From assembly GCA_947626845.1 (NCBI GenBank), contig CANQTW010000009.1:1850-65849 (forward strand): 64,000 bases of DNA, given 5' to 3'. How positions within the stretch are numbered: the first letter of the stretch is position 1; every line of letters begins with the position of its first letter. This stretch comes from an uncultured Oscillospiraceae bacterium. Its GTDB lineage: Bacteria > Bacillota > Clostridia > Oscillospirales > Oscillospiraceae. Below the pieces are notes generated by a model, which saw only the letters and a program-made list of their open reading frames with translations, had not been told where the DNA came from and ran no database searches. The position numbers and the translations under genes were made by a program. Positions 3,468 through 60,638 of the stretch are shown here, one piece after another.

Positions 3468-4397
3468 ATGAAATACGGCTACGGCGTGGACCTGGGCGGC
3501 ACCACCGTCAAAATGGGCCTTTTTGCGGAAAACGGGGAGCTTATAGACAAGTGGGAGATCGACACCGACACCACAGGCGGCGGCGTCAACATCCCCGCGG
3601 ACATCGGCAGAGCCATTCTGGCGGACATGAACAAGCACAGCTTTGACAAATCCGACTATCTGGGCCTCGGCATCGGCGTCCCCGGTCAGGTCTGGCCCGA
3701 CGGCACCGCCGACGCGGTGAACCTGGGCTGGAAGCGCCTTCCCCTTATCGGCCAGCTGGAGGAGATGACCGGCCTGCGCTGTGTAGGTGACAACGACGCC
3801 AATATGGCCGCCATGGGCGAATTTTGGCAGGGCGGCGGCAAGGGCTATAAGAGCCTTGTCCTTATCACCCTGGGCACCGGCGTGGGCGGGGGCATCATTC
3901 TGGACGGCAAATGCCTCCAGGGCGCCCACAGGGCCGGCGGCGAGATCGGTCATATCCCCGTGAATCCCGCGGAGACGCGGGTCTGCGGCTGCGGCAACCG
4001 GGGCTGTCTGGAGCAGTACGCCTCGGCTACCGGCTGTGCCCGCCTCGCCATGGACGCCCTGGCCGCCTCGGACGAGCCCTCCACCCTGCGCTCCTCCCGG
4101 AAGGTGGACGCCCGCGCCGTCTGGGACGCGGCGAAGGCCGGAGACGCTCTGGCCGTCAGCGTCGCCGGACAGTTCTGCGATGTCCTGGCACGGGGCATCG
4201 CCGCCGTCACCAATACCGTTGACCCGGAGGTGGTGGTCATCGGCGGCGGCGTCTCGCGGGCGGGCCAGCTCCTGATCGACATGACTGTCCAACGCTTCCG
4301 CCGTTACGCCTTCAATGCCTGCAAAGATACCCCCATCGTCCTGGCCGGTCTCGGCAACGACGCCGGCATGTACGGGTGCGTGGCCAAGCTTCTTTAA
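3468..4397 (+). CDS. glcK: ROK-family glucokinase
   Basis: N-terminus YGVDLGGTTVKMGLF, the ROK signature and a CGCGNRGCLEQY zinc motif. RBS GGAAAGGGAG upstream. Confidence 0.85.
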   Translation: MKYGYGVDLGGTTVKMGLFAENGELIDKWEIDTDTTGGGVNIPADIGRAILADMNKHSFDKSDYLGLGIGVPGQVWPDGTADAVNLGWKRLPLIGQLEEMTGLRCVGDNDANMAAMGEFWQGGGKGYKSLVLITLGTGVGGGIILDGKCLQGAHRAGGEIGHIPVNPAETRVCGCGNRGCLEQYASATGCARLAMDALAASDEPSTLRSSRKVDARAVWDAAKAGDALAVSVAGQFCDVLARGIAAVTNTVDPEVVVIGGGVSRAGQLLIDMTVQRFRRYAFNACKDTPIVLAGLGNDAGMYGCVAKLL

Positions 4398-4419
4398 TAC
4401 GCGGCTCCTGAAACGTCGA

Positions 4420-4445
4420 TCCCCCCGCCAGCATAGGCGGGGGGA
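4420..4445. terminator. bidirectional intrinsic terminator (glcK / DUF1273 gene)
   Basis: TCCCCCCGCC-agcata-GGCGGGGGGA followed by TATTTTA. Confidence 0.65.
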
Positions 4446-4473
4446 TATTTTATGAATTTAAGCTGATTTTTGA

Positions 4474-4992
4474 TCAATCGTCGATCATCAGCTCGATTAC
4501 CCTGACGCCGAGGCTTCTGGCGTACTGGATGGTCTGCTCTGTCCCTCCCGGCGCGCCGGTACGGGCGGCGATGAGCACCTGGGAGGAATCCACCATATAT
4601 TTGTTCCGCCTCTGCATACAGCCGGGGGTGTACTCACGGGAAATAAGCGTCACGTTGTCGCACTGGTGGAGGATATAATTGTACCGCCGCCGCTCCTCCC
4701 CGCTCCAGCCGTGAGACTGGGTCTCGCAGGGAATGGCGGCCTCCAGGGTAAGGCCCTGGTACTCGTCCCGCAGGGCCAGGACGATCTCGGCAAAATAGAG
4801 GTCGCACCCCTTGGCCATGCCGCAGATGAACCGTCTCGCACCGGCCCGGTAGACCCTCCTGACGGCGTCCTCCAGGCGCTCCTTCAGCTCCACACAGCGC
4901 CCGTCCCGCTCGTCGTCTCCCCAGGGCAGCTTCTCCGGGCGGTTACCGGTGAAGGAACAGACCTGGATATTCTCAAATGTCAGCTGATCCAC
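4474..4992 (-). CDS. SLOG / DUF1273 (YpsA-like) family protein
   Basis: GTG start at 4992 preceded by GGGAGGGAGG. Similar to the B. subtilis YpsA architecture (..FTGNRPEKL.., ..AIPCETQ.., ..GGTEQTIQYA..). Confidence 0.6.
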   Translation of the reverse strand: MDQLTFENIQVCSFTGNRPEKLPWGDDERDGRCVELKERLEDAVRRVYRAGARRFICGMAKGCDLYFAEIVLALRDEYQGLTLEAAIPCETQSHGWSGEERRRYNYILHQCDNVTLISREYTPGCMQRRNKYMVDSSQVLIAARTGAPGGTEQTIQYARSLGVRVIELMIDD

Positions 4993-5166
4993 CGTGTCCG
5001 CCTCCCTCCCGTTTATGTGGAACCGGCTCTTGAATAACGCCGCTCCGCTGAAGCATCTACAGGCCGTCCTGCCGGCCAGCGGGGGCCAAATCGCTCCCGC
5101 GGTCATTTGCTCGCCTGTATCCTACAGTATAGCATTTTGCCGCCCTTTTGTAAAGCCGGCAAGCCC

Positions 5167-5195
5167 TTGCAAAATGCCCGCCCGCGTGGTATACT
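5167..5195 (+). promoter_or_regulatory. sigma-A-type promoter of the ABC exporter gene
   Basis: TTGCAA - 17 nt - (TGg)TATACT, about 35 nt upstream of ATG 5228. Confidence 0.5.
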
Positions 5196-5227
5196 TGTCA
5201 CCGATTTTTGATCCGGGGGACGTTTCT

Positions 5228-6976
5228 ATGAAGAAGGATTTCAAAAACTGGGGTCTTTTCCGTATTTTTATCAGCTATTTCAAGCCGCACATGGGCCTTT
5301 TTGCCCTGGACATGGTCTGCGCCCTCTTTATCTCCCTGGTGGACCTCCTTTTCCCCTACGCCTCGCGCCTGTGCCTTTACGAGCTGATCCCCGGCCATCT
5401 CTACGGGGCGTTTTTCGCCGTCATCGGCATCATCGTGGCGGCCTATCTTATTCGGGCGCTTCTGCAATACGTGGTGGTCTACTGGGGCCACGCCTTCGGC
5501 ATCCTGGTGGAGGCGGACATCCGTGAGGACCTCTTTACCCATCTCCAGACGCTCCCCGTCAGCTTTTTCGACAAAAACCGCACAGGACACCTGATGAGCC
5601 AGCTGACAAGCGAGCTTTTTGATATCACTGAGCTTGCCCATCACGGGCCGGAGGACGTGTTCATCTCCACCGTCACCGTGGCAGGCGCCATCGCCATCCT
5701 TTTCACCATCCAGTGGCGGCTGGCCCTGCTGATGCTGGTGCTGATCCCCATCTTCCTGGCCGTGGCCACCCTGAACCGCAAGCGTATGCGCGACACCTCC
5801 CGCGCCGTGAAGCGTGTCACCGCCTCCATCAACGCGGATATCGAATCCAGCCTCTCCGGTATGCGCACCGCCAAGGCCTTTGCCAACGAAACGGCGGAGC
5901 ACAGCCGGTTCGACGCGGCCAATGACCGCTTCCGCGGCTCCAAGAAGGCCCAGTACAAGGCCATGGGCGTGTTCCAAAGCTCACTGGAGTTTTTCACCTC
6001 CATCATGCCCGTGGCGGTCATCGCCTACGGCGGCTATCTCATCATGAAGGGCCTGATGGACTACCGGGATCTGATCACCTTCACCCTCTACACCTCCACC
6101 TTCGTGGCCCCTATCCGCAAGCTTGCCAACCTCTCGGAGATGCTGGTCAACGGCATGGCGGGCCTCTCTCGGTTTACCGATCTCATGCGCGTGGAGCCGG
6201 AGCTCAGCGACAAGCCGGACGCCGTGGACCTTCGGGACGTGCGCGGGCGGATCGACGTAAACGACGTCTCCTTCTCCTACGAGCGGGACGAGACGCCCGT
6301 CCTCCGGCACGTGGACCTGCACGTCTCCCCCGGCGAGACCGTGGCGGTGGTGGGGCCCTCCGGCGGCGGCAAAACGACTCTCTGCTCCCTGATCCCCCGC
6401 TTTTACGACGTGACCGCCGGCTCCATCCTGGTGGACGGGACGGACGTGCGGGATGTGACCCAGAAGAGCCTGCGCCGGAACATCGGCGTGGTCCAGCAGG
6501 ACGTGTTCCTTTTCGCCGACTCCATCATGAACAACATCCGCTACGGCAGGCCCGACGCTTCGGACAGCGAGGTGGCCGAGGCGGCAAAGCGCGCGGAGAT
6601 ATACGACGACATCATGGCCATGCCGGCAGGCTTCGACACCTTCGTGGGCGAGCGGGGCGTCCTCCTCTCCGGCGGACAGAAACAGCGCATCTCCATCGCC
6701 CGCATCTTCCTGAAAAACCCGCCGGTGCTGATCCTGGACGAGGCCACCTCGGCCCTGGATTCCGTCACGGAGGCGAAGATACAGCACGCCTTCGACGAGC
6801 TCTCCCGTGGCCGCACCACCCTCATCATCGCCCACCGGCTCTCCACCGTTCGGGCCGCCGACAGGATACTGGTCATCCGGGACGGCGTCATCACCGAGCA
6901 GGGCACCCACCGGGACCTTCTGGCCCTGGGCGGCGACTACGCGAATCTCTATAATACGCAGAATCTACATATGTAG
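5228..6976 (+). CDS. ABC transporter, fused permease/ATP-binding protein (MsbA-like exporter)
   Basis: Six-TM N-terminal domain, Walker A GPSGGGKTT, signature LSGGQKQR and Walker B LILDEATSALD. The true start is MKKDFKNWG at 5228. Confidence 0.9.
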   Translation: MKKDFKNWGLFRIFISYFKPHMGLFALDMVCALFISLVDLLFPYASRLCLYELIPGHLYGAFFAVIGIIVAAYLIRALLQYVVVYWGHAFGILVEADIREDLFTHLQTLPVSFFDKNRTGHLMSQLTSELFDITELAHHGPEDVFISTVTVAGAIAILFTIQWRLALLMLVLIPIFLAVATLNRKRMRDTSRAVKRVTASINADIESSLSGMRTAKAFANETAEHSRFDAANDRFRGSKKAQYKAMGVFQSSLEFFTSIMPVAVIAYGGYLIMKGLMDYRDLITFTLYTSTFVAPIRKLANLSEMLVNGMAGLSRFTDLMRVEPELSDKPDAVDLRDVRGRIDVNDVSFSYERDETPVLRHVDLHVSPGETVAVVGPSGGGKTTLCSLIPRFYDVTAGSILVDGTDVRDVTQKSLRRNIGVVQQDVFLFADSIMNNIRYGRPDASDSEVAEAAKRAEIYDDIMAMPAGFDTFVGERGVLLSGGQKQRISIARIFLKNPPVLILDEATSALDSVTEAKIQHAFDELSRGRTTLIIAHRLSTVRAADRILVIRDGVITEQGTHRDLLALGGDYANLYNTQNLHM

Positions 6977-51398: not shown

Positions 51399-52067
51399 TT
51401 ATTCTTTCCAAAGCTTTACCTGCTCCCGGAGCCATCCGGCCCACTCGTCCACGCCCTCTCCCGTTTTGGCGCAGACGGGGATGATCTTGGCCTCCGGATT
51501 GCGCGCCAGGATGTTTTTCCGGCACTTGTCCATATCAAAATCAAAATACGGCAGTACGTCCACCTTGTTGATGAGCACCACGTCGCAGACGGAGAACATC
51601 AGCGGGTACTTGAGCGGCTTGTCATCCCCCTCCGGCACCGAGAGGATCATGGCGTTTTTGCTGGCGCCGGTGTCAAATTCCGCGGGACACACTAAGTTCC
51701 CCACGTTCTCCAGGATCGCCAGGTCCAGGTCGCCGGTCTCCAGGCCCTCCAGGCCCTGGGCCGTCATATCCGCGTCCAGGTGGCACATGCCGCCGGTGTG
51801 GAGCTGGATGGCCCTGGCGCCGGTCTTAGCGATGCGCTCCGCGTCCACATCCGAGTCGATGTCCGCCTCCATGACGCCGATCTTCAGCTCCCCGCCCAGG
51901 CGCTCAATGGTCCTGGTGAGCAGCGTGGTCTTCCCCGCCCCCGGCGAGGACATGAGATTTAAGAGAAACAGCTTTTTCTCCCGGAGACGCCGCCGCAGCG
52001 CCTCCGCCCGCCGGTCATTGCCGGCAAAGACGTTCTGTTTGACCTCCAGGATACGAAAGTCCCCCAT
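51399..52067 (-). CDS. hypB: nickel-inserting GTPase HypB
   Basis: P-loop SSPGAGKTT and ENVGNLVCP. ATG at 52067 fits the predicted promoter and RBS GGGGGTG better than the ATG at 52088. Confidence 0.85.
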   Translation of the reverse strand: MGDFRILEVKQNVFAGNDRRAEALRRRLREKKLFLLNLMSSPGAGKTTLLTRTIERLGGELKIGVMEADIDSDVDAERIAKTGARAIQLHTGGMCHLDADMTAQGLEGLETGDLDLAILENVGNLVCPAEFDTGASKNAMILSVPEGDDKPLKYPLMFSVCDVVLINKVDVLPYFDFDMDKCRKNILARNPEAKIIPVCAKTGEGVDEWAGWLREQVKLWKE

Positions 52068-52100
52068 AGGAACACCCCCAAACGACATTTTCTGTATCCC

Positions 52101-52129
52101 AGTATACCGGCTTTTGTGGATTTTGTCAA
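52101..52129 (-). promoter_or_regulatory. promoter of the hypB operon
   Basis: Minus strand: TTGACA - 17 nt - TATACT. Confidence 0.5.
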
Positions 52130-52158
52130 ACATATCTCCGAAAAAATCAAAAATATTC

Positions 52159-52187
52159 TTGAATCCGCACAATTAATGTGATAAAAT
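52159..52187 (+). promoter_or_regulatory. promoter of the nitroreductase gene
   Basis: TTGAAT - 17 nt - TGaTAAAAT. Confidence 0.45.
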
Positions 52188-55245: not shown

Positions 55246-55299
55246 CTCGATATTCGAGTTTCTATGGTGTATTATAATCTCGATTATCGAGATTGTCAA
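55246..55299 (-). promoter_or_regulatory. padR promoter with palindromic operators
   Basis: Minus strand: TTGACA - ATCTCGATAATCGAGAT - TATAAT. A second related site, CTCGAATATCGAG, lies downstream. Confidence 0.65.
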
Positions 55300-55359
55300 G
55301 AGAAAAAAGCGGGAAACCGTGAAAAAGTTTCCCGCTGTGTTTTGTATGGCCGCTCCGGG

Positions 55360-57372
55360 TCAGCCGGCGATTTTTTGGGCGCGGCGGATGAGGTAAGCGG
55401 ACAGCGCCGGCATGATGACGGCGGCGCCCCATACGGGGAGCACGCCGAATACGCCAAGGAGCGCGGTCAGCGCCTGGATCGCCAGGCTCACCAGGAAGCC
55501 GGAGGTGATGTTCTGCCGCACGAGCCTGGCGTCACGCAAAAAGCGCGGCAGGGGCGTCAAAAGCCCGTCGGAGAGGATGATATCGGGGTAGTTGGCGGTG
55601 GAGTCGTCCCCCACCCCTAAGGTGACGCTGATGTTGGCCAGCTCCAGCAGCTCCCGCTCGTTTCCGGCGCGGGTGACGAAGGCGGCCCTGTCGTTTTGGT
55701 CCTGGGTGTTCTGGATGTACTGGAGCCGCTCTATCTTGTCGGCGGGCCGGCAGTCGGAGTAGACCTCGGAGATGTCCAGCCTTCGGCCCACGTTGGTGGA
55801 GGCCAGGGCGTTGTCGCCGGTCATGAGGGCGATGTTGTCCACGCCCGCCTTGCGCAGATCGCGGGCGATGTTGGCGGCGTCGGGCCTGAGATCGTCGGCA
55901 AAGTCGATCCGGCCCACGCAGACCTTGTCCACGCAGACGAAAACGCACGTTCCGCCGGGGACGAAGAGGTTCCCCCTGACGCCAAGCTTCTCCATGAAGT
56001 CGATGTTGCCGACGCCCACAATGGTGCCGTCGTCCAGGCGCACCAGGCTCCCGTAGCCCAGCTCCACGCGCTGGCGCTCGATGCGGGATTTCTCCGGCAC
56101 GATCCCCGACTCGCGGCGGATCACACGGTTCAGGGGGTGCTCGGAATAGGCCCCCGCCTGGACCGCCAGATAGAGGAGCTGGCTCTCGCTGATCCTGACG
56201 GGGTCCAGGTTGGTGATCCTGTACGCGCCGTCGGTGAGGGTGCCGGCCTTGTTGAAGATGACGCTGGTGACGTCGGCGCAGGCGCTGACCGTCCCAAGGC
56301 CGGAAATCCAGGCGCCGGAAGAATAAGCCCGCTCCACGGCGCTGGCATAGGCCAAAATGACCGCAAGCTCGCCGCCGCAGGCGCAGGCGGCGACGATCAC
56401 GGCGGCGCGGGCCAGCCATTTGGAGAAGAGGGCGCTGTTGATAAGGCCGGGGATCAGCGCGCACAGCACCGCCAGCACAAGGGCGGCCACCAGCACAAGC
56501 AGGCGGGCGCCGCGGAGGTCCATGGCGGCCTTGATCCGGCCATTCTCAAGCTCGTCCACACAGGCGGAAAGACGTCTCTCACGACTGGGGTCGATGCCGT
56601 CCAGGCGGGCATAGAGCCGGTCCATCACGTTCTCCAGCGCCCGGTGGGCCAGACGGTCCGTGACGGCGTAGAGGGCGTTGAAGATGACGGCGCACAGCGC
56701 CGCGGCCACAAGCTCATGGGCCGCCGCCGTCAACAGCACCGCCAGGAGCATGACCATGGCGGGACCGTGGCGGGAGCTGTCCCGCAGGCGGATCACCGTC
56801 CAGACAAGCAGGGGGACGCACCCCACCGCCAGTCCGGCCAGCACAAAGACGCTCCAGGCCGGGTCGGGGATGTCCGGCACCACGGCGACCCCCACCAGGG
56901 CGGCGGAGATCAGCGAGGTCAGCAGGACGAGGATGACCTTGCCGGTAAAAAGGCCGCTCCGGCGCGGCTCCTCCCCCTCCGTTTCGGACGCTTCGTCACC
57001 GGGTTCGGGGCTCTCGCCATCGCCGCGGGGCGGTTCCTCCTCCCCCGCCGGCTGTTCCTCCTCTGTCGGTTGTTCCTCCCCTGCCGGCTCCTCGCCGGCG
57101 GATTCCTCCTGGTCGGAGAAAGCAAAGGTGAAGTCCGGCTTGGCCGGCTCCTCCGCGCCTTCCTCCGCTCCCTCCGTGGCATCGTCTCCGGCGGGGCCGG
57201 CGGGTTCCGGCTCTTTGGTCCTGAGCGCCGCCGGCGCTTCAGGCGCGGCGGGCTCCGCCTCCATAGGGGCGGACGGGCCGTTCTGGTCATGGTATTCCTT
57301 CAGGATATCGTCCACGGTGAGACGGGAGGCCTCCGCCTCCTCCGGGATTCTGTCAAGCTCGTTCTCTTTCAC
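55360..57372 (-). CDS. degenerate P1B-type ATPase homologue (catalytic Asp replaced, no actuator domain, acidic N-terminal region)
   Basis: Colinear with heavy-metal ATPases (SEHPL, MTGDN, TM helices). However DKTGT reads NKAGT, GDGINDAPAL reads TRAGNERELL, and no TGES domain is present. GTG at 57372 follows AGGTGG. Confidence 0.7.
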   Translation of the reverse strand: MKENELDRIPEEAEASRLTVDDILKEYHDQNGPSAPMEAEPAAPEAPAALRTKEPEPAGPAGDDATEGAEEGAEEPAKPDFTFAFSDQEESAGEEPAGEEQPTEEEQPAGEEEPPRGDGESPEPGDEASETEGEEPRRSGLFTGKVILVLLTSLISAALVGVAVVPDIPDPAWSVFVLAGLAVGCVPLLVWTVIRLRDSSRHGPAMVMLLAVLLTAAAHELVAAALCAVIFNALYAVTDRLAHRALENVMDRLYARLDGIDPSRERRLSACVDELENGRIKAAMDLRGARLLVLVAALVLAVLCALIPGLINSALFSKWLARAAVIVAACACGGELAVILAYASAVERAYSSGAWISGLGTVSACADVTSVIFNKAGTLTDGAYRITNLDPVRISESQLLYLAVQAGAYSEHPLNRVIRRESGIVPEKSRIERQRVELGYGSLVRLDDGTIVGVGNIDFMEKLGVRGNLFVPGGTCVFVCVDKVCVGRIDFADDLRPDAANIARDLRKAGVDNIALMTGDNALASTNVGRRLDISEVYSDCRPADKIERLQYIQNTQDQNDRAAFVTRAGNERELLELANISVTLGVGDDSTANYPDIILSDGLLTPLPRFLRDARLVRQNITSGFLVSLAIQALTALLGVFGVLPVWGAAVIMPALSAYLIRRAQKIAG

Positions 57373-57449
57373 ACGCTCACCACCTGCGAAAAAATGAAGC
57401 GGGCGACCGGCCCCCGAAGAAGGGGTCACGGCCGCCGCGGGATCGCTTT

Positions 57450-58418
57450 TTACGCCTTGCCGGCACAGCCAAGGACGTCGATGAGCTTATGGGTCACGAT
57501 GGCCTTGATGTTGGCGCGGGCGGGGGTCAGATACTGGCGCGGGTCGAAATGATCCGGATGATCCGCGAAATACTTGCGGATGGAGCCGGTCATAGCCAGG
57601 CGAAGATCGGAGTCGATGTTGATCTTGCACACGGAGAGGGTGGCGGCTTTTCTGAGCTGTTCCTCCGGGATGCCCACGGCGTCGGGCATCCTGCCGCCGT
57701 TTTCGTTGATCATCTTCACAAACTCCTGGGGCACGCTGGAGGAGCCGTGGAGCACGATGGGGAATCCGGGCAGGCGGCGGGAGACCTCCTCAAGGATGTC
57801 GAACCGCAGCGGAGGGGGCACAAGGACGCCCTGCTCGTTGCGGGTGCACTGGGCGGCGGTGAATTTGTAAGCGCCGTGGCTGGTGCCGATGGCGATGGCA
57901 AGGGAGTCGCAACCGGTCTTCTGGACGAACTCCTCCACCTCCTCCGGGCGGGTGTAGCTGGAGTCCTCGGCGGAGACGTTGACCTCGTCCTCCACGCCGG
58001 CCAGGGAGCCAAGCTCGGCCTCCACCACAACGCCGTGGTCATGGGCGTACTCCACCACCTTGCGGGTGATCTCGATATTCTCCTTGAAGGGCTTGGAGCT
58101 GGCGTCGATCATGACGGAGGTGAAGCCGCCGTCGATGCAGGATTTGCAGGTCTCGAAGTCGGGGCCGTGGTCAAGGTGCAGGGCGATGGGAATCTCCGGA
58201 CACTCGATGACGGCGGCCTCCACCAGCTTCACAAGGTAGGTGTGGTTGGCGTAGGCGCGGGCGCCCTTGCTGACCTGAAGGATCAGGGGCGCGTGCTGTT
58301 CACGGGCGGCCTCGGTGATGCCCTGAACGATCTCCATGTTGTTCACGTTGAAGGCGCCTACGGCGTAACCGCCGTCATAGGCCTTTTTGAACATCTCGGT
58401 GGTGGTAACTAAAGGCAT
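57450..58418 (-). CDS. fba: class II fructose-1,6-bisphosphate aldolase
   Basis: MPLVTTTEMFKKAYDGGYAVGAFNVNN.., LHLDHG and HGSS motifs. Confidence 0.9.
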   Translation of the reverse strand: MPLVTTTEMFKKAYDGGYAVGAFNVNNMEIVQGITEAAREQHAPLILQVSKGARAYANHTYLVKLVEAAVIECPEIPIALHLDHGPDFETCKSCIDGGFTSVMIDASSKPFKENIEITRKVVEYAHDHGVVVEAELGSLAGVEDEVNVSAEDSSYTRPEEVEEFVQKTGCDSLAIAIGTSHGAYKFTAAQCTRNEQGVLVPPPLRFDILEEVSRRLPGFPIVLHGSSSVPQEFVKMINENGGRMPDAVGIPEEQLRKAATLSVCKINIDSDLRLAMTGSIRKYFADHPDHFDPRQYLTPARANIKAIVTHKLIDVLGCAGKA

Positions 58419-58461
58419 AATGATCACTCCTATGTAGAGAATTTGGGTCTACAACAGGTCT

Positions 58462-58489
58462 ATTATACCATATCGCGCCGTCAATTCAA
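58462..58489 (-). promoter_or_regulatory. promoter of fba
   Basis: Minus strand: TTGAAT - 16 nt - TGgTATAAT. Confidence 0.5.
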
Positions 58490-58551: not shown

Positions 58552-60084
58552 TCAATCGGCCTTCGCTTTGACCTCCAGGAAATATATCTCCCCGGTGAGA
58601 TCGACGGTTTTAATACCATTTTTCAGGTCAAAGCCGAAATTCTGGCGGATGATCTCGATTTTTCCCCGATCCTCTAAGGTGGCGGATTGGTTGGTGAAAG
58701 CCAGATTCGAGCCCAGGCGGGTGGCCAGCTCGTACTCCGCCCCGCCGACGCTCCCGCGGGCGTGGAAGGGGTCGCTGCTGCCCGTCTTGTGAAGCTCCGC
58801 CGTCAGGGTGACGGACGCCCCCGCCGGAACGGTGATCTCCGCCTCCAGCCACATCACCCGATCCACGCTTGCCACCTCGGAAAACCATAGGTCTCCGCCG
58901 CGATACCGCTCCTTCGGCTCCCGCGCCAGGGGCCCGTCGGTGACGAGCCACAGCTTGAATTGGCCGTAGACCGTCTCGAAGTCCGGCCGGCCGTCCTGTC
59001 CGTCATAGCTCCCGTACTGCTCCAGCGCCAGGGCGCGCAGATATTCCTCCAGGTCCACCTCACGTCTTGTGATCGTGGCTCCCGCCTCCATGGGCTGGGC
59101 CTCTTTCTCGGCCACGGCGGTGAAGCCCTCTATTTTTACTTCCCCCACGTCCTCCCCCACGACAAGGAGCGTCCTGTGTCCGTCGTCCTTGTAAGAACCG
59201 CTCGTCTCGCCGGGGATGCCGTATAGGAGGCACATCCATCCCTCATCGCCGTCCAGGCTCCAGCCGGAAAAGCCGCCGGTGTACAAAAGCCTTGTTTTGG
59301 CGTAGTCCAGGGGGAAGGTGATGTGGAGGACAGGCCGCGGCGCCTCCTGCCCCTCCGTTAGGGTATACCAGGGGTCCGTCAGGTCGTAGACCCAGGCCGT
59401 GACGCCGGTGAAATCGGGATAAGGGCTTTCGGCGGCGGCAAAGTAGCTCCCGTCGGCCAGCAGGTCCCGGTAATCCTCCCAGAAATCGGGGTAGTTCATG
59501 TTGACGCTGCCGCCCAGCTCGTCCCCGCCGATACTCCCCTTCCAGGCCCCCTCGTAGCCGCCGGCGTAATATCCGGCCAGGAGGGTCGTTTCCAGCTCCA
59601 CGCCGTCCAGGGTCAGGACGGGCCGGCGGCGGCTCACCTCATAGAACCGCCCGATGAAGGGGTAGAGCGCCCGCACGGTCCGATCCTCGCCGGAGGTGTT
59701 TTGCAGGGTATAGCTGTCCCGTATCAGCAGCTCCGTGCCGTCCATGTCCCAGCCGGCGAAGTCCAGGGTGACGGACCGCTCCGCGCTGATGTCCTCCTGA
59801 TCGTCCCGAAGGGTCAGGGGCAGGACCGGCCCCTCGTAAAGAAGGAAGCTCCGGGGTTCGTCCCCCTTGCCGCCCACGTTTGATTCGCCGGATTGGCCGC
59901 CGATGGGAAGGAAGTAGAAAGCGCCCACGCCGATCACCGCCACCGCGGCGCAGGCGGCCAGGGTCTTGACCAGCCGGCGGGGCCAGCGGCGGCGCCTTCT
60001 CGCCCGATCCTCCGCCGCCTCCAGGATCAGTTCTTCCTCCAGGCCGCCCAGGGCGGCCAGTAAATACGCGCATCTTTCACTCAT
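58552..60084 (-). CDS. single-pass membrane protein cotranslated with an ECF sigma factor (putative anti-sigma/sensor)
   Basis: ATGA overlap with the sigma gene. N-terminal LLAALGGLEEELILEAA motif, a TM helix and a large extracytoplasmic domain. Confidence 0.55.
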   Translation of the reverse strand: MSERCAYLLAALGGLEEELILEAAEDRARRRRRWPRRLVKTLAACAAVAVIGVGAFYFLPIGGQSGESNVGGKGDEPRSFLLYEGPVLPLTLRDDQEDISAERSVTLDFAGWDMDGTELLIRDSYTLQNTSGEDRTVRALYPFIGRFYEVSRRRPVLTLDGVELETTLLAGYYAGGYEGAWKGSIGGDELGGSVNMNYPDFWEDYRDLLADGSYFAAAESPYPDFTGVTAWVYDLTDPWYTLTEGQEAPRPVLHITFPLDYAKTRLLYTGGFSGWSLDGDEGWMCLLYGIPGETSGSYKDDGHRTLLVVGEDVGEVKIEGFTAVAEKEAQPMEAGATITRREVDLEEYLRALALEQYGSYDGQDGRPDFETVYGQFKLWLVTDGPLAREPKERYRGGDLWFSEVASVDRVMWLEAEITVPAGASVTLTAELHKTGSSDPFHARGSVGGAEYELATRLGSNLAFTNQSATLEDRGKIEIIRQNFGFDLKNGIKTVDLTGEIYFLEVKAKAD

Positions 60085-60638
60085 AAGACGATCCCCTCCT
60101 TTTCCAGGGCGCGCCGGAGGCCGCCGCGCAGGCGGTTCAGCTTCTGAGCCAGCCGGTTGGCGGGGACGCCGCGGCTTTGGGCGATCTCCTTCACCGTGTC
60201 CCCGAACCAGTAGCGGCGGAGGAACAGCGCCCTGTCATCTTTGGACAGGGTCTTCAGCCACCTGTCCACCGCCTGGGCCGTCTGCCGCTCCCCGGACACC
60301 TCCTCGGCGCTGGGGGCCAGGGGCAGGCAGGCCTCCAGCTCCGGCGTCAGGGCCGTCAGCTCCCCCGCGCGAAAAGCGGCGGTATTCCCGCGCCAGCGAT
60401 CCACCGTCAGGTTGCGGGTGATCTTCAGCATATACGCCTTCAGGGACAGGGGCCGCTGGGGCGGGATGGACTCCCACAGGCGCAGCAGTACGTCGGAGAC
60501 GCACTCCTCCGCGTCCTGGTCGCTCCCCAGAAGCCTCCGGGCCAGCTCCCGACAAAGGCCGCCGTATTTCTCCGAAACCGCCGTCAGGGCGGACTCGTCC
60601 CTGGCCCAGAACAGCTCCACAAGCTTGGTATCCTCCAC
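60081..60638 (-). CDS. ECF-type sigma-70 family RNA polymerase sigma factor (paralogue of 44517-45071)
   Basis: Same motif layout as the other sigma: MED..ELF.AR.E.A......KYG..C, DAEECVSDVLLRLW, LFLRRYWFGDTVKEIA. Confidence 0.85.
   Translation of the reverse strand: MEDTKLVELFWARDESALTAVSEKYGGLCRELARRLLGSDQDAEECVSDVLLRLWESIPPQRPLSLKAYMLKITRNLTVDRWRGNTAAFRAGELTALTPELEACLPLAPSAEEVSGERQTAQAVDRWLKTLSKDDRALFLRRYWFGDTVKEIAQSRGVPANRLAQKLNRLRGGLRRALEKEGIVL

Follow-up and report, generated by a model that had tools for sequence, protein, structure and literature searches.

A predicted dead descendant of Zn/Cd-type P-type ATPases under purifying selection in one uncultured Oscillospiraceae genus

Here, we describe a gene for a pseudo-P1B-ATPase in a 64,000-nt stretch of contig CANQTW010000009.1 (assembly GCA_947626845.1) from an uncultured Oscillospiraceae bacterium. 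This stretch is hereafter called the window; nucleotide coordinates without another label are numbered along it, and the gene lies on its minus strand. Judged by its motifs, the product is very probably a dead pump, derived from a Zn/Cd-type (P1B-2-like) P-type ATPase and unable to catalyze or transport. The best overall explanation, to which we give about an even chance, is that selection keeps this protein, which serves as a membrane-anchored module for binding or regulation. The gene and the domains of its product, in which A, P and N denote the actuator, phosphorylation and nucleotide-binding domains and dN/dS the ratio of nonsynonymous to synonymous substitution rates, are arranged as follows:

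55360 to 57372, minus strand: pseudo-P1B-ATPase gene, 670 amino acids plus stop, GTG start with GGTGGTGA just before it
57283 to 57372, minus strand: residues 1–30, conserved N-terminal tip (MKExxxD..PE....TVDDILKEY), short predicted helix at 20–30, dN/dS 0.10–0.24
56953 to 57282, minus strand: residues 31–140, disordered, acidic, Pro-rich cytoplasmic tail, near-neutral in sequence with conserved net negative charge
57038 to 57089, minus strand: 18-bp tandem repeat inside the acidic tail, 2.9 copies with 79% matches, encoding PAGEE-type repeats
56605 to 56952, minus strand: residues 141–256, helices MA, MB, M1 and M2 (AlphaFold2 helices 144–164, 172–197, 204–217 and 221–256)
56533 to 56604, minus strand: residues 257–280, site of the A-domain deletion, with a single short AlphaFold2 helix (262–277) and an invariant R267
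56317 to 56532, minus strand: residues 281–352, helices M3 and M4 (AlphaFold2)
55555 to 56316, minus strand: residues 353–606, P and N domains, the slowest-evolving part, dN/dS 0.13–0.2
55363 to 55554, minus strand: residues 607–670, helices M5 and M6, with M5 Lys replaced by Gln and M6 Asp by Met

The reading frame is intact, as the initial annotation had held for 671 codons: 670 codons and the stop are open. A longer GTG-started frame extends to 57429 on the same strand. In the family alignment, the starts of the homologues (M-K/E-E/D..., such as MKE, MKD and MEE) all align with 57372; together with GGTGGTGA before the start codon, this therefore marks 57372 as the right start.

Alignments with ZntA, CopA and TIGR01525 agree with the earlier proposal of a P1B-type homologue colinear with heavy-metal P-type ATPases. 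The NCBIfam model TIGR01525 (heavy-metal P-type ATPase) matches residues 294–658 with an E value of 4.6e-52, scoring 178 bits against a cut-off of 346; among proteins of solved structure, ZntA (4umv, E 1.4e-27) and CopA match best. Pfam gave no significant match over the full protein, the best being a sub-threshold hit to DotU (E 0.14); the family therefore escapes the Pfam P-type models. An AlphaFold2 model built from 24 family sequences has a mean predicted local distance difference test score of 77, with about 88–93 over residues 141–670 and less than 50 over residues 1–140 except for a weak helix at 20–30. In this model, eight membrane helices follow the P1B order (MA, MB, M1–M4, cytoplasmic head, M5, M6). 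A Foldseek comparison with the Protein Data Bank ranks ZntA, CopA, CadA and ATP7B first, with E values down to 1.6e-21 (4umw) and ZntA and CopA at the top, as expected for a retained P1B fold. The best whole-chain TM-score is 0.62, against the E1-state CopA 7r0g, and the P and N domains reach 0.81–0.83 against those of CopA. Collectively, the model indicates that the pump architecture is retained without the actuator, and fold, sequence similarity and a tree position beside a canonical pump place the protein among the P1B ATPases by evolution.

The preserved membrane-domain fold would also suit a regulatory partner that modulates a canonical P1B ATPase of the same genome, much as pseudokinases do with kinases. 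Canonical P1B pumps are indeed encoded on contig 13 (an 838-aa frame with metal-binding domains) and contig 35 (a 635-aa frame) of this genome. However, the gene is linked to neither of them, and P1B pumps are not known to need heteromeric partners. We regard such a partnership as distinctly improbable.

The catalytic machinery departs from that of a pump at the following sites, or is retained at them:

56368 to 56385, minus strand: residues 330–335, CACGGE in M4 at the CPC position (alignments)
56251 to 56253, minus strand: Asn374 (codon AAC, in NKAGT) at the position of the phosphorylated Asp (alignments and direct codon reading)
56131 to 56145, minus strand: SEHPL, S410–L414, the HP motif of the N domain, with S410 and H412 invariant
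55810 to 55821, minus strand: TGDN, T518–N521, invariant in the family
55645 to 55674, minus strand: residues 567–576, TRAGNERELL at the GDGINDAPAL position, with Arg568 at the Mg-ligand Asp

Direct reading of the AAC codon bears out the change from DKTGT to NKAGT that the initial annotation had described. The alignments with ZntA, CopA and TIGR01525 likewise support TRAGNERELL in place of GDGINDAPAL, and they place CAC, inside CACGGE, at the position of CPC, where an ACACGGE helix had been noted. SEHPL and MTGDN, listed earlier as retained, are both intact. Profile and structure-guided alignments place no Asp at the phosphorylation site, a placement that would have counted against the annotation. 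The A domain is missing, as claimed; however, its replacement had been put at about 45 residues, and the string quoted for it has only 35. With respect to the HAD catalytic motifs, the Asp of motif I is Asn and the first Asp of motif IV is Arg, and T518 of motif II and K546 of motif III are kept. Four features of functional P1B membership are therefore lacking in the window protein, namely, the Asp of DKTGT, the A domain with TGES, the set of CPx, M5 Lys and M6 Asp, and GDGxNDxP. It is a P1B ATPase by descent and fold, but with these four features missing, annotation as a heavy-metal translocating ATPase should be avoided. Canonical phosphorylation, dephosphorylation and Mg binding at the catalytic site are predicted to be impossible for it.

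These losses extend through the family. No member has the A domain or the GDGxND hinge with its Mg-ligand Asp; approximately 24–35 residues stand where the canonical sister has approximately 117 with TGES, and no member matches Pfam PF00122 (A domain). Every member keeps GxG, TGDN, the P-domain Lys (PxDK) and both the Ser and the His of the HP motif, and the Lys and Thr of the DKTGT block (K375, T378) are mostly kept. In the N-domain site, S410, H412, G439 and G441 are invariant, whereas five positions before the His, at the adenine-contacting Glu, the crown clade carries Gly (Gly407) and earlier branches carry Glu or Asp. Over 60 alignment columns are invariant across 24 family sequences. The Asn at the phosphorylation site holds in 24 of 32 members, but its conservation is not strict: Ser occurs in four, and Ala, Thr and Asp occur once each.

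The conservation of K375, T378, TGDN and K546, together with the Asp at this site in member L040, might be taken to indicate a still-active ATPase or phosphatase with an alternative nucleophile or mechanism. However, the site varies among N, S, A, T and D, so that no single nucleophile is conserved, and the Mg-ligand Asp and the dephosphorylating A domain are absent everywhere. L040 itself carries an Arg two residues downstream of its Asp, at the Thr position, and has also lost the hinge. We consider continued activity extremely improbable.

The ion-binding site divides the family into two groups. In the crown clade (approximately 20 species, including that of the window), M4 carries CxxxGE, M5 carries Arg or Gln, M6 carries Met, and an invariant Gly occupies the adenine-contact position. 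An early-branching clade (L032, L034, L038, L039 and L040) still has CPC or CPI, with the full CPC in L034, as well as M5 Lys, M6 Asp and the adenine-contacting Glu before the HP His. The decay was therefore stepwise. No known ion ligands appear to be left in the clade of the window.

This early clade is where a passive metal pathway or transceptor is more plausible. The membrane domain would then bind or conduct Zn/Cd-type ions and report to the cytoplasmic head, possibly as metal supply or sensing for the neighboring Zn-dependent class II aldolase. Early members keep the metal site although nucleophile, hinge and A domain are already gone, the ancestor was an ArsR-regulated Zn/Cd-type pump, the linkage to fba is invariant, and class II Fba is a divalent-metal enzyme. 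In contrast, the approximately 20 species of the crown clade have lost CPC, Lys and Asp and show no obvious set of soft-metal ligands in M4–M6, and a P1B fold that lacks its A domain is not known to conduct ions. Overall, such a role seems improbable.

A word-indexed search returned 24 clusters with 42–98% identity and more than 90% coverage, none of which contains PF00122. Scores fall steeply after these, first to a canonical pump, P0026 (37% identity, 67% coverage), and then to ordinary P1B pumps. Among 1.84 billion representatives, a profile search yielded only approximately 25 clusters of the type without an A domain. All 20 loci returned from the species-representative genomes belong to metagenome-assembled genomes of uncultured Oscillospiraceae, and their sample names read 'Lapin', a name that suggests rabbit gut. 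In whole-genome searches, the family was present in 34 of the 38 genomes of the genus of the window, including all 24 high-quality ones, and it did not turn up in any of the other genera sampled, whether the 133 of the family Oscillospiraceae or the 177 of the order. The four genomes of the genus without a hit (G201, G205, G211 and G212) are 76–87% complete, and this incompleteness is probably why they lack the gene. An ancestral fba–arsR–pump state was considered for these four genomes and rejected: their best P0026-like matches are ordinary canonical pumps with no fba open reading frame in the fetched flanks.

To describe selection, we computed dN/dS by the Nei–Gojobori method for pairs with unsaturated dS. 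Values are 0.17–0.20 for the P and N domains, 0.11–0.24 for helices MA to M4, and 0.13–0.31 for M5–M6; the overall value is 0.04 in one early-clade pair. No stop interrupts the window gene or 33 of the 34 genus copies, and dN/dS in the folded part, at 0.13–0.3, stays well below 1, which agrees with the initial annotation that this is not a decaying pseudogene; frameshifts or stops in the homologues, which were to count against this view, are not the rule, as the copies are intact and under purifying selection. Homology, loss of catalytic residues, purifying selection and presence in 24 of 24 high-quality genomes are together the marks of a pseudoenzyme. The gene evolves fast yet under clear constraint, most strongly in the P/N head. 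In the fba/dead-pump pair, the protein rates differ by approximately 10- to 50-fold.

The same comparison bears on whether the gene is a relic en route to loss, whose function vanished with the A domain and which decays slowly, either under selection against toxic misfolding or because too little time has passed. Its dN/dS of 0.2–0.45 is roughly ten times that of fba, the protein falls to 39% identity where Fba is 96–99% identical, residual motifs are lost progressively, and one copy, in genome G208, has an in-frame TGA. Against decay, 33 of the 34 species copies retain an intact open reading frame although the genus is deep (fba dS reaches 0.5–1.9), and all folded domains have dN/dS values far below 1. 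The invariant columns described above, a tail charge conserved despite a near-neutral sequence, and an N-terminal motif gained and conserved in the crown clade also fit a relic poorly. Collectively, these results make loss in progress improbable, to about the same degree as the metal pathway.

An acidic N-terminal tail of approximately 45–165 residues is present in all members, whereas the canonical sister has none; the conserved tip (...TVDDILKEY) occurs in the crown clade only. In the window, the acidic tract described by the initial annotation was confirmed, as residues 1–140 contain 45 Asp and Glu against 10 Lys and Arg and are disordered in the model. The net charge of the tail lies between −9 and −36 in nearly all members, and its dN/dS is 0.47–1.46 (Nei–Gojobori), so that the sequence drifts while the charge is held. 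A 98%-identical relative, P0002, carries seven extra residues in the repeat tract at 57038–57089, and tail length therefore changes by repeat slippage.

With regard to origin, a maximum-likelihood tree of 85 sequences recovers the family as a single clade (Shimodaira–Hasegawa-like approximate likelihood ratio test, 100), and the split that groups it with P0026 and L045 against all other pumps has a support of 99. P0026 is complete as a pump: it has TGES, CPC, DKTGT, GDGIND, M5 Lys and M6 Asp, which is the Zn/Cd-type signature. Its near-identical relative lies on contig L045 in the order fba, arsR (HTH_5), pump, integrase. Within L045 (923–1415), fba is followed by a promoter, TTGACA-17-TAAACT, and the palindrome AGCAACAGTTGAACAAGTGTTCAACTGTTGCT, and then by arsR and the pump; the palindrome looks like an ArsR/SmtB-type operator. 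The best canonical matches in other genera (G071, G116, G127 and G037) have no fba in the fetched flanks. Because the nearest live relative also lies directly downstream of fba, the dead pump probably arose in situ. The tree and distribution indicate a single origin, in the ancestor of one uncultured Oscillospiraceae genus, and gene order suggests that its source was most likely a metal-regulated efflux operon minus its repressor.

The surroundings of the gene in the window contain the following elements:

57450 to 58427, minus strand: fba, class II fructose-bisphosphate aldolase, the invariably conserved upstream neighbor
57390 to 57436, minus strand: hairpin and U-run between fba and the gene, ending approximately 17 nt before the start codon, with no room for a promoter
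58462 to 58489, minus strand: promoter-like site (TTGAAT-16-TG-TATAAT) preceding fba, from which transcripts reaching the gene probably start
55308 to 55336, minus strand: terminator-like hairpin (11 pairs) and U-run just past the stop codon
55271 to 55299, minus strand: perfect consensus sigma-70 promoter (TTGACA-17-TATAAT) of padR-DUF2812

In every locus with enough upstream sequence (approximately 35), fba lies directly upstream on the same strand, whatever the outer flanks. The strong hairpin and U-run after fba end approximately 10–30 nt from the ribosome-binding site of the gene in nearly every locus, and a promoter scan of that strand found no promoter-like site between fba and the gene or inside fba. 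As the gene has no promoter of its own, we infer that it is expressed by read-through of the fba terminator, which would give a low, fixed ratio to the very highly expressed fba. The terminator at 55336–55308 and the promoter at 55299–55271 make padR-DUF2812 a separate transcription unit. The operon link implied by the initial annotation was thus rejected, and padR is also missing downstream in L001, L005 and L007.

Several other genes lie nearby. An extracytoplasmic function-type sigma factor gene (60081–60638, minus strand) overlaps by 4 bases the gene for a 510-residue protein (58552–60084) that has no Pfam match and may be an anti-sigma factor or a partner of the sigma factor. This pair stands upstream of fba and is not conserved there in all related loci. 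Approximately 3 kb downstream, at 51399–52172, is a CobW/HypB/UreG-family GTPase of the metallochaperone type (ENVGNLVCP motif); the genes between it and the dead pump include a nitroreductase, DUF6514 and DUF2812. A cobW-family gene also occurs near the homologous locus L008. An anti-phage defense protein was considered and set aside, with no PADLOC family match at an E value of 0.01 or better.

As to mechanism, we tentatively propose, at somewhat less than even probability, a non-pumping, membrane-anchored module for binding or regulation. The E1/E2 phosphoenzyme cycle could not run. The P/N head, through its Lys, TGDN, HP and GxG elements, would offer a residual pocket for a phosphate- or nucleotide-type ligand or a surface for docking; recruitment or sequestration of a partner would fall to the acidic cytoplasmic tail and the conserved tip; and read-through of the fba terminator would keep production low.

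Several observations weigh against this proposal. In the crown clade, the adenine-contacting Glu is replaced by an invariant Gly, and published work on ATP7B E1064A reportedly implies that loss of this Glu should weaken nucleotide binding. The replacement therefore argues against simple ATP sensing in this clade, and we make no confident claim of ATP binding. The residue that replaces the Mg ligand is unconserved (R, S, E, H or A). Moreover, the dN/dS of the gene is high for a bacterial gene, whereas that of the adjacent fba is 0.02–0.07; among crown-clade genomes, the dead-pump proteins share 39–87% identity. The copy in G208 (L043:3913–4287; G208:C111) contains a single in-frame TGA (…SATRL*REVGITEIYADC…) beyond which the frame continues, and this codon may stem from a sequencing error or from recent inactivation. 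Finally, the pairing with fba may simply reflect synteny between related genomes.

We compared the dead pump with known systems. It shares with the P1B-2 (Zn/Cd/Pb) ATPases (ZntA 4umv/4umw, CadA 7qbz) the eight-helix topology, the P and N folds, S-x-HP, GxG, TGDN and the P-domain Lys. In contrast to them, it has no A domain or TGES, carries Asn for Asp and has lost GDGxND, and in the crown clade CPC, M5 Lys and M6 Asp are lost and Gly stands for the N-domain Glu. Its nearest sequence relative is the ArsR-linked pump P0026/P0127, with which it shares the position downstream of fba and the clade-specific motifs CVGRIDL, MTGDNAL and EIYSDCxPxDK, but from which it differs in having no ArsR partner and in its new acidic N-terminal tail.

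More distant parallels are the transporter-derived sensors UhpC, Snf3/Rgt2 and Ssy1, in which a transporter fold likewise outlives transport and an added tail is thought to signal or recruit. However, these are secondary carriers that keep their substrate site, whereas the clade of the window has lost the known metal ligands. Similarly, the FCP1-like domain of Tim50, a HAD-fold pseudo-phosphatase, is a HAD-type domain without the nucleophile Asp that is kept for binding; pseudo-phosphatases of this type belong to unrelated lineages, lie outside a P-type pump architecture and have no N domain. Engineered SERCA mutants of the D351N type carry the identical substitution at the same position, fold, and bind nucleotide without forming a phosphoenzyme. 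They are laboratory point mutants of otherwise complete pumps, whereas the present case is a natural lineage that has also lost the A domain, the Mg ligand, the ion site and the adenine-contacting Glu.

Other P1B-2-like proteins with degenerate motifs were observed in the metagenome search among P0148–P0160, with the A domain kept. At the position of the phosphorylated Asp, P0149 and P0154 carry Ser, P0157 carries Gly and P0160 carries Asn; P0159 has no A domain and retains DKTGT. On L047 (G116:C1:583500-593000, open reading frame 3485–5512), in another genus of the same family, CPC reads GTV and TGES reads TGDA, and the gene adjoins a yebC-like gene. Judging from these motifs, degenerate pumps may recur.

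P-type ATPases are among the best-understood molecular machines, and the catalytic Asp, the A domain and the hinge are regarded as common to all of them. Within the literature library covered, our full-text searches returned no described family of dead or pseudo P-type ATPases and no pump without an A domain, and for uncharacterized P-type families they turned up only general surveys. In its most far-reaching and, in our estimate, unlikely form, the finding would make these proteins the first dead P-type ATPases known as a natural family, in which a Zn/Cd pump was turned stepwise into a non-pumping membrane receptor or regulator. This protein would use an acquired acidic tail and an N-terminal docking motif to pass signals to a cytoplasmic partner or to sequester it, and its expression would be tied to the glycolytic gene fba. 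The A domain, the nucleophile and the hinge would have been lost first, and the ion site and the adenine contact later. If true, and taken with the other degenerate P1B-like proteins, this would mean that conversion of pump to pseudoenzyme recurs, unrecognized, among P-type ATPases.

The narrow range of the family, one uncultured gut genus, limits its interest. For annotation, the findings may nevertheless be of use, as such genes are liable to be labeled "heavy-metal translocating ATPase" or "HAD hydrolase". The lineage amounts to a natural dissection of a pump, which reveals the parts of the fold that stay under selection without catalysis and transport, and because the early branches retain the metal site, the order of losses is preserved. 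A function, if found, would extend the concepts of the pseudoenzyme and the transceptor to primary pumps.

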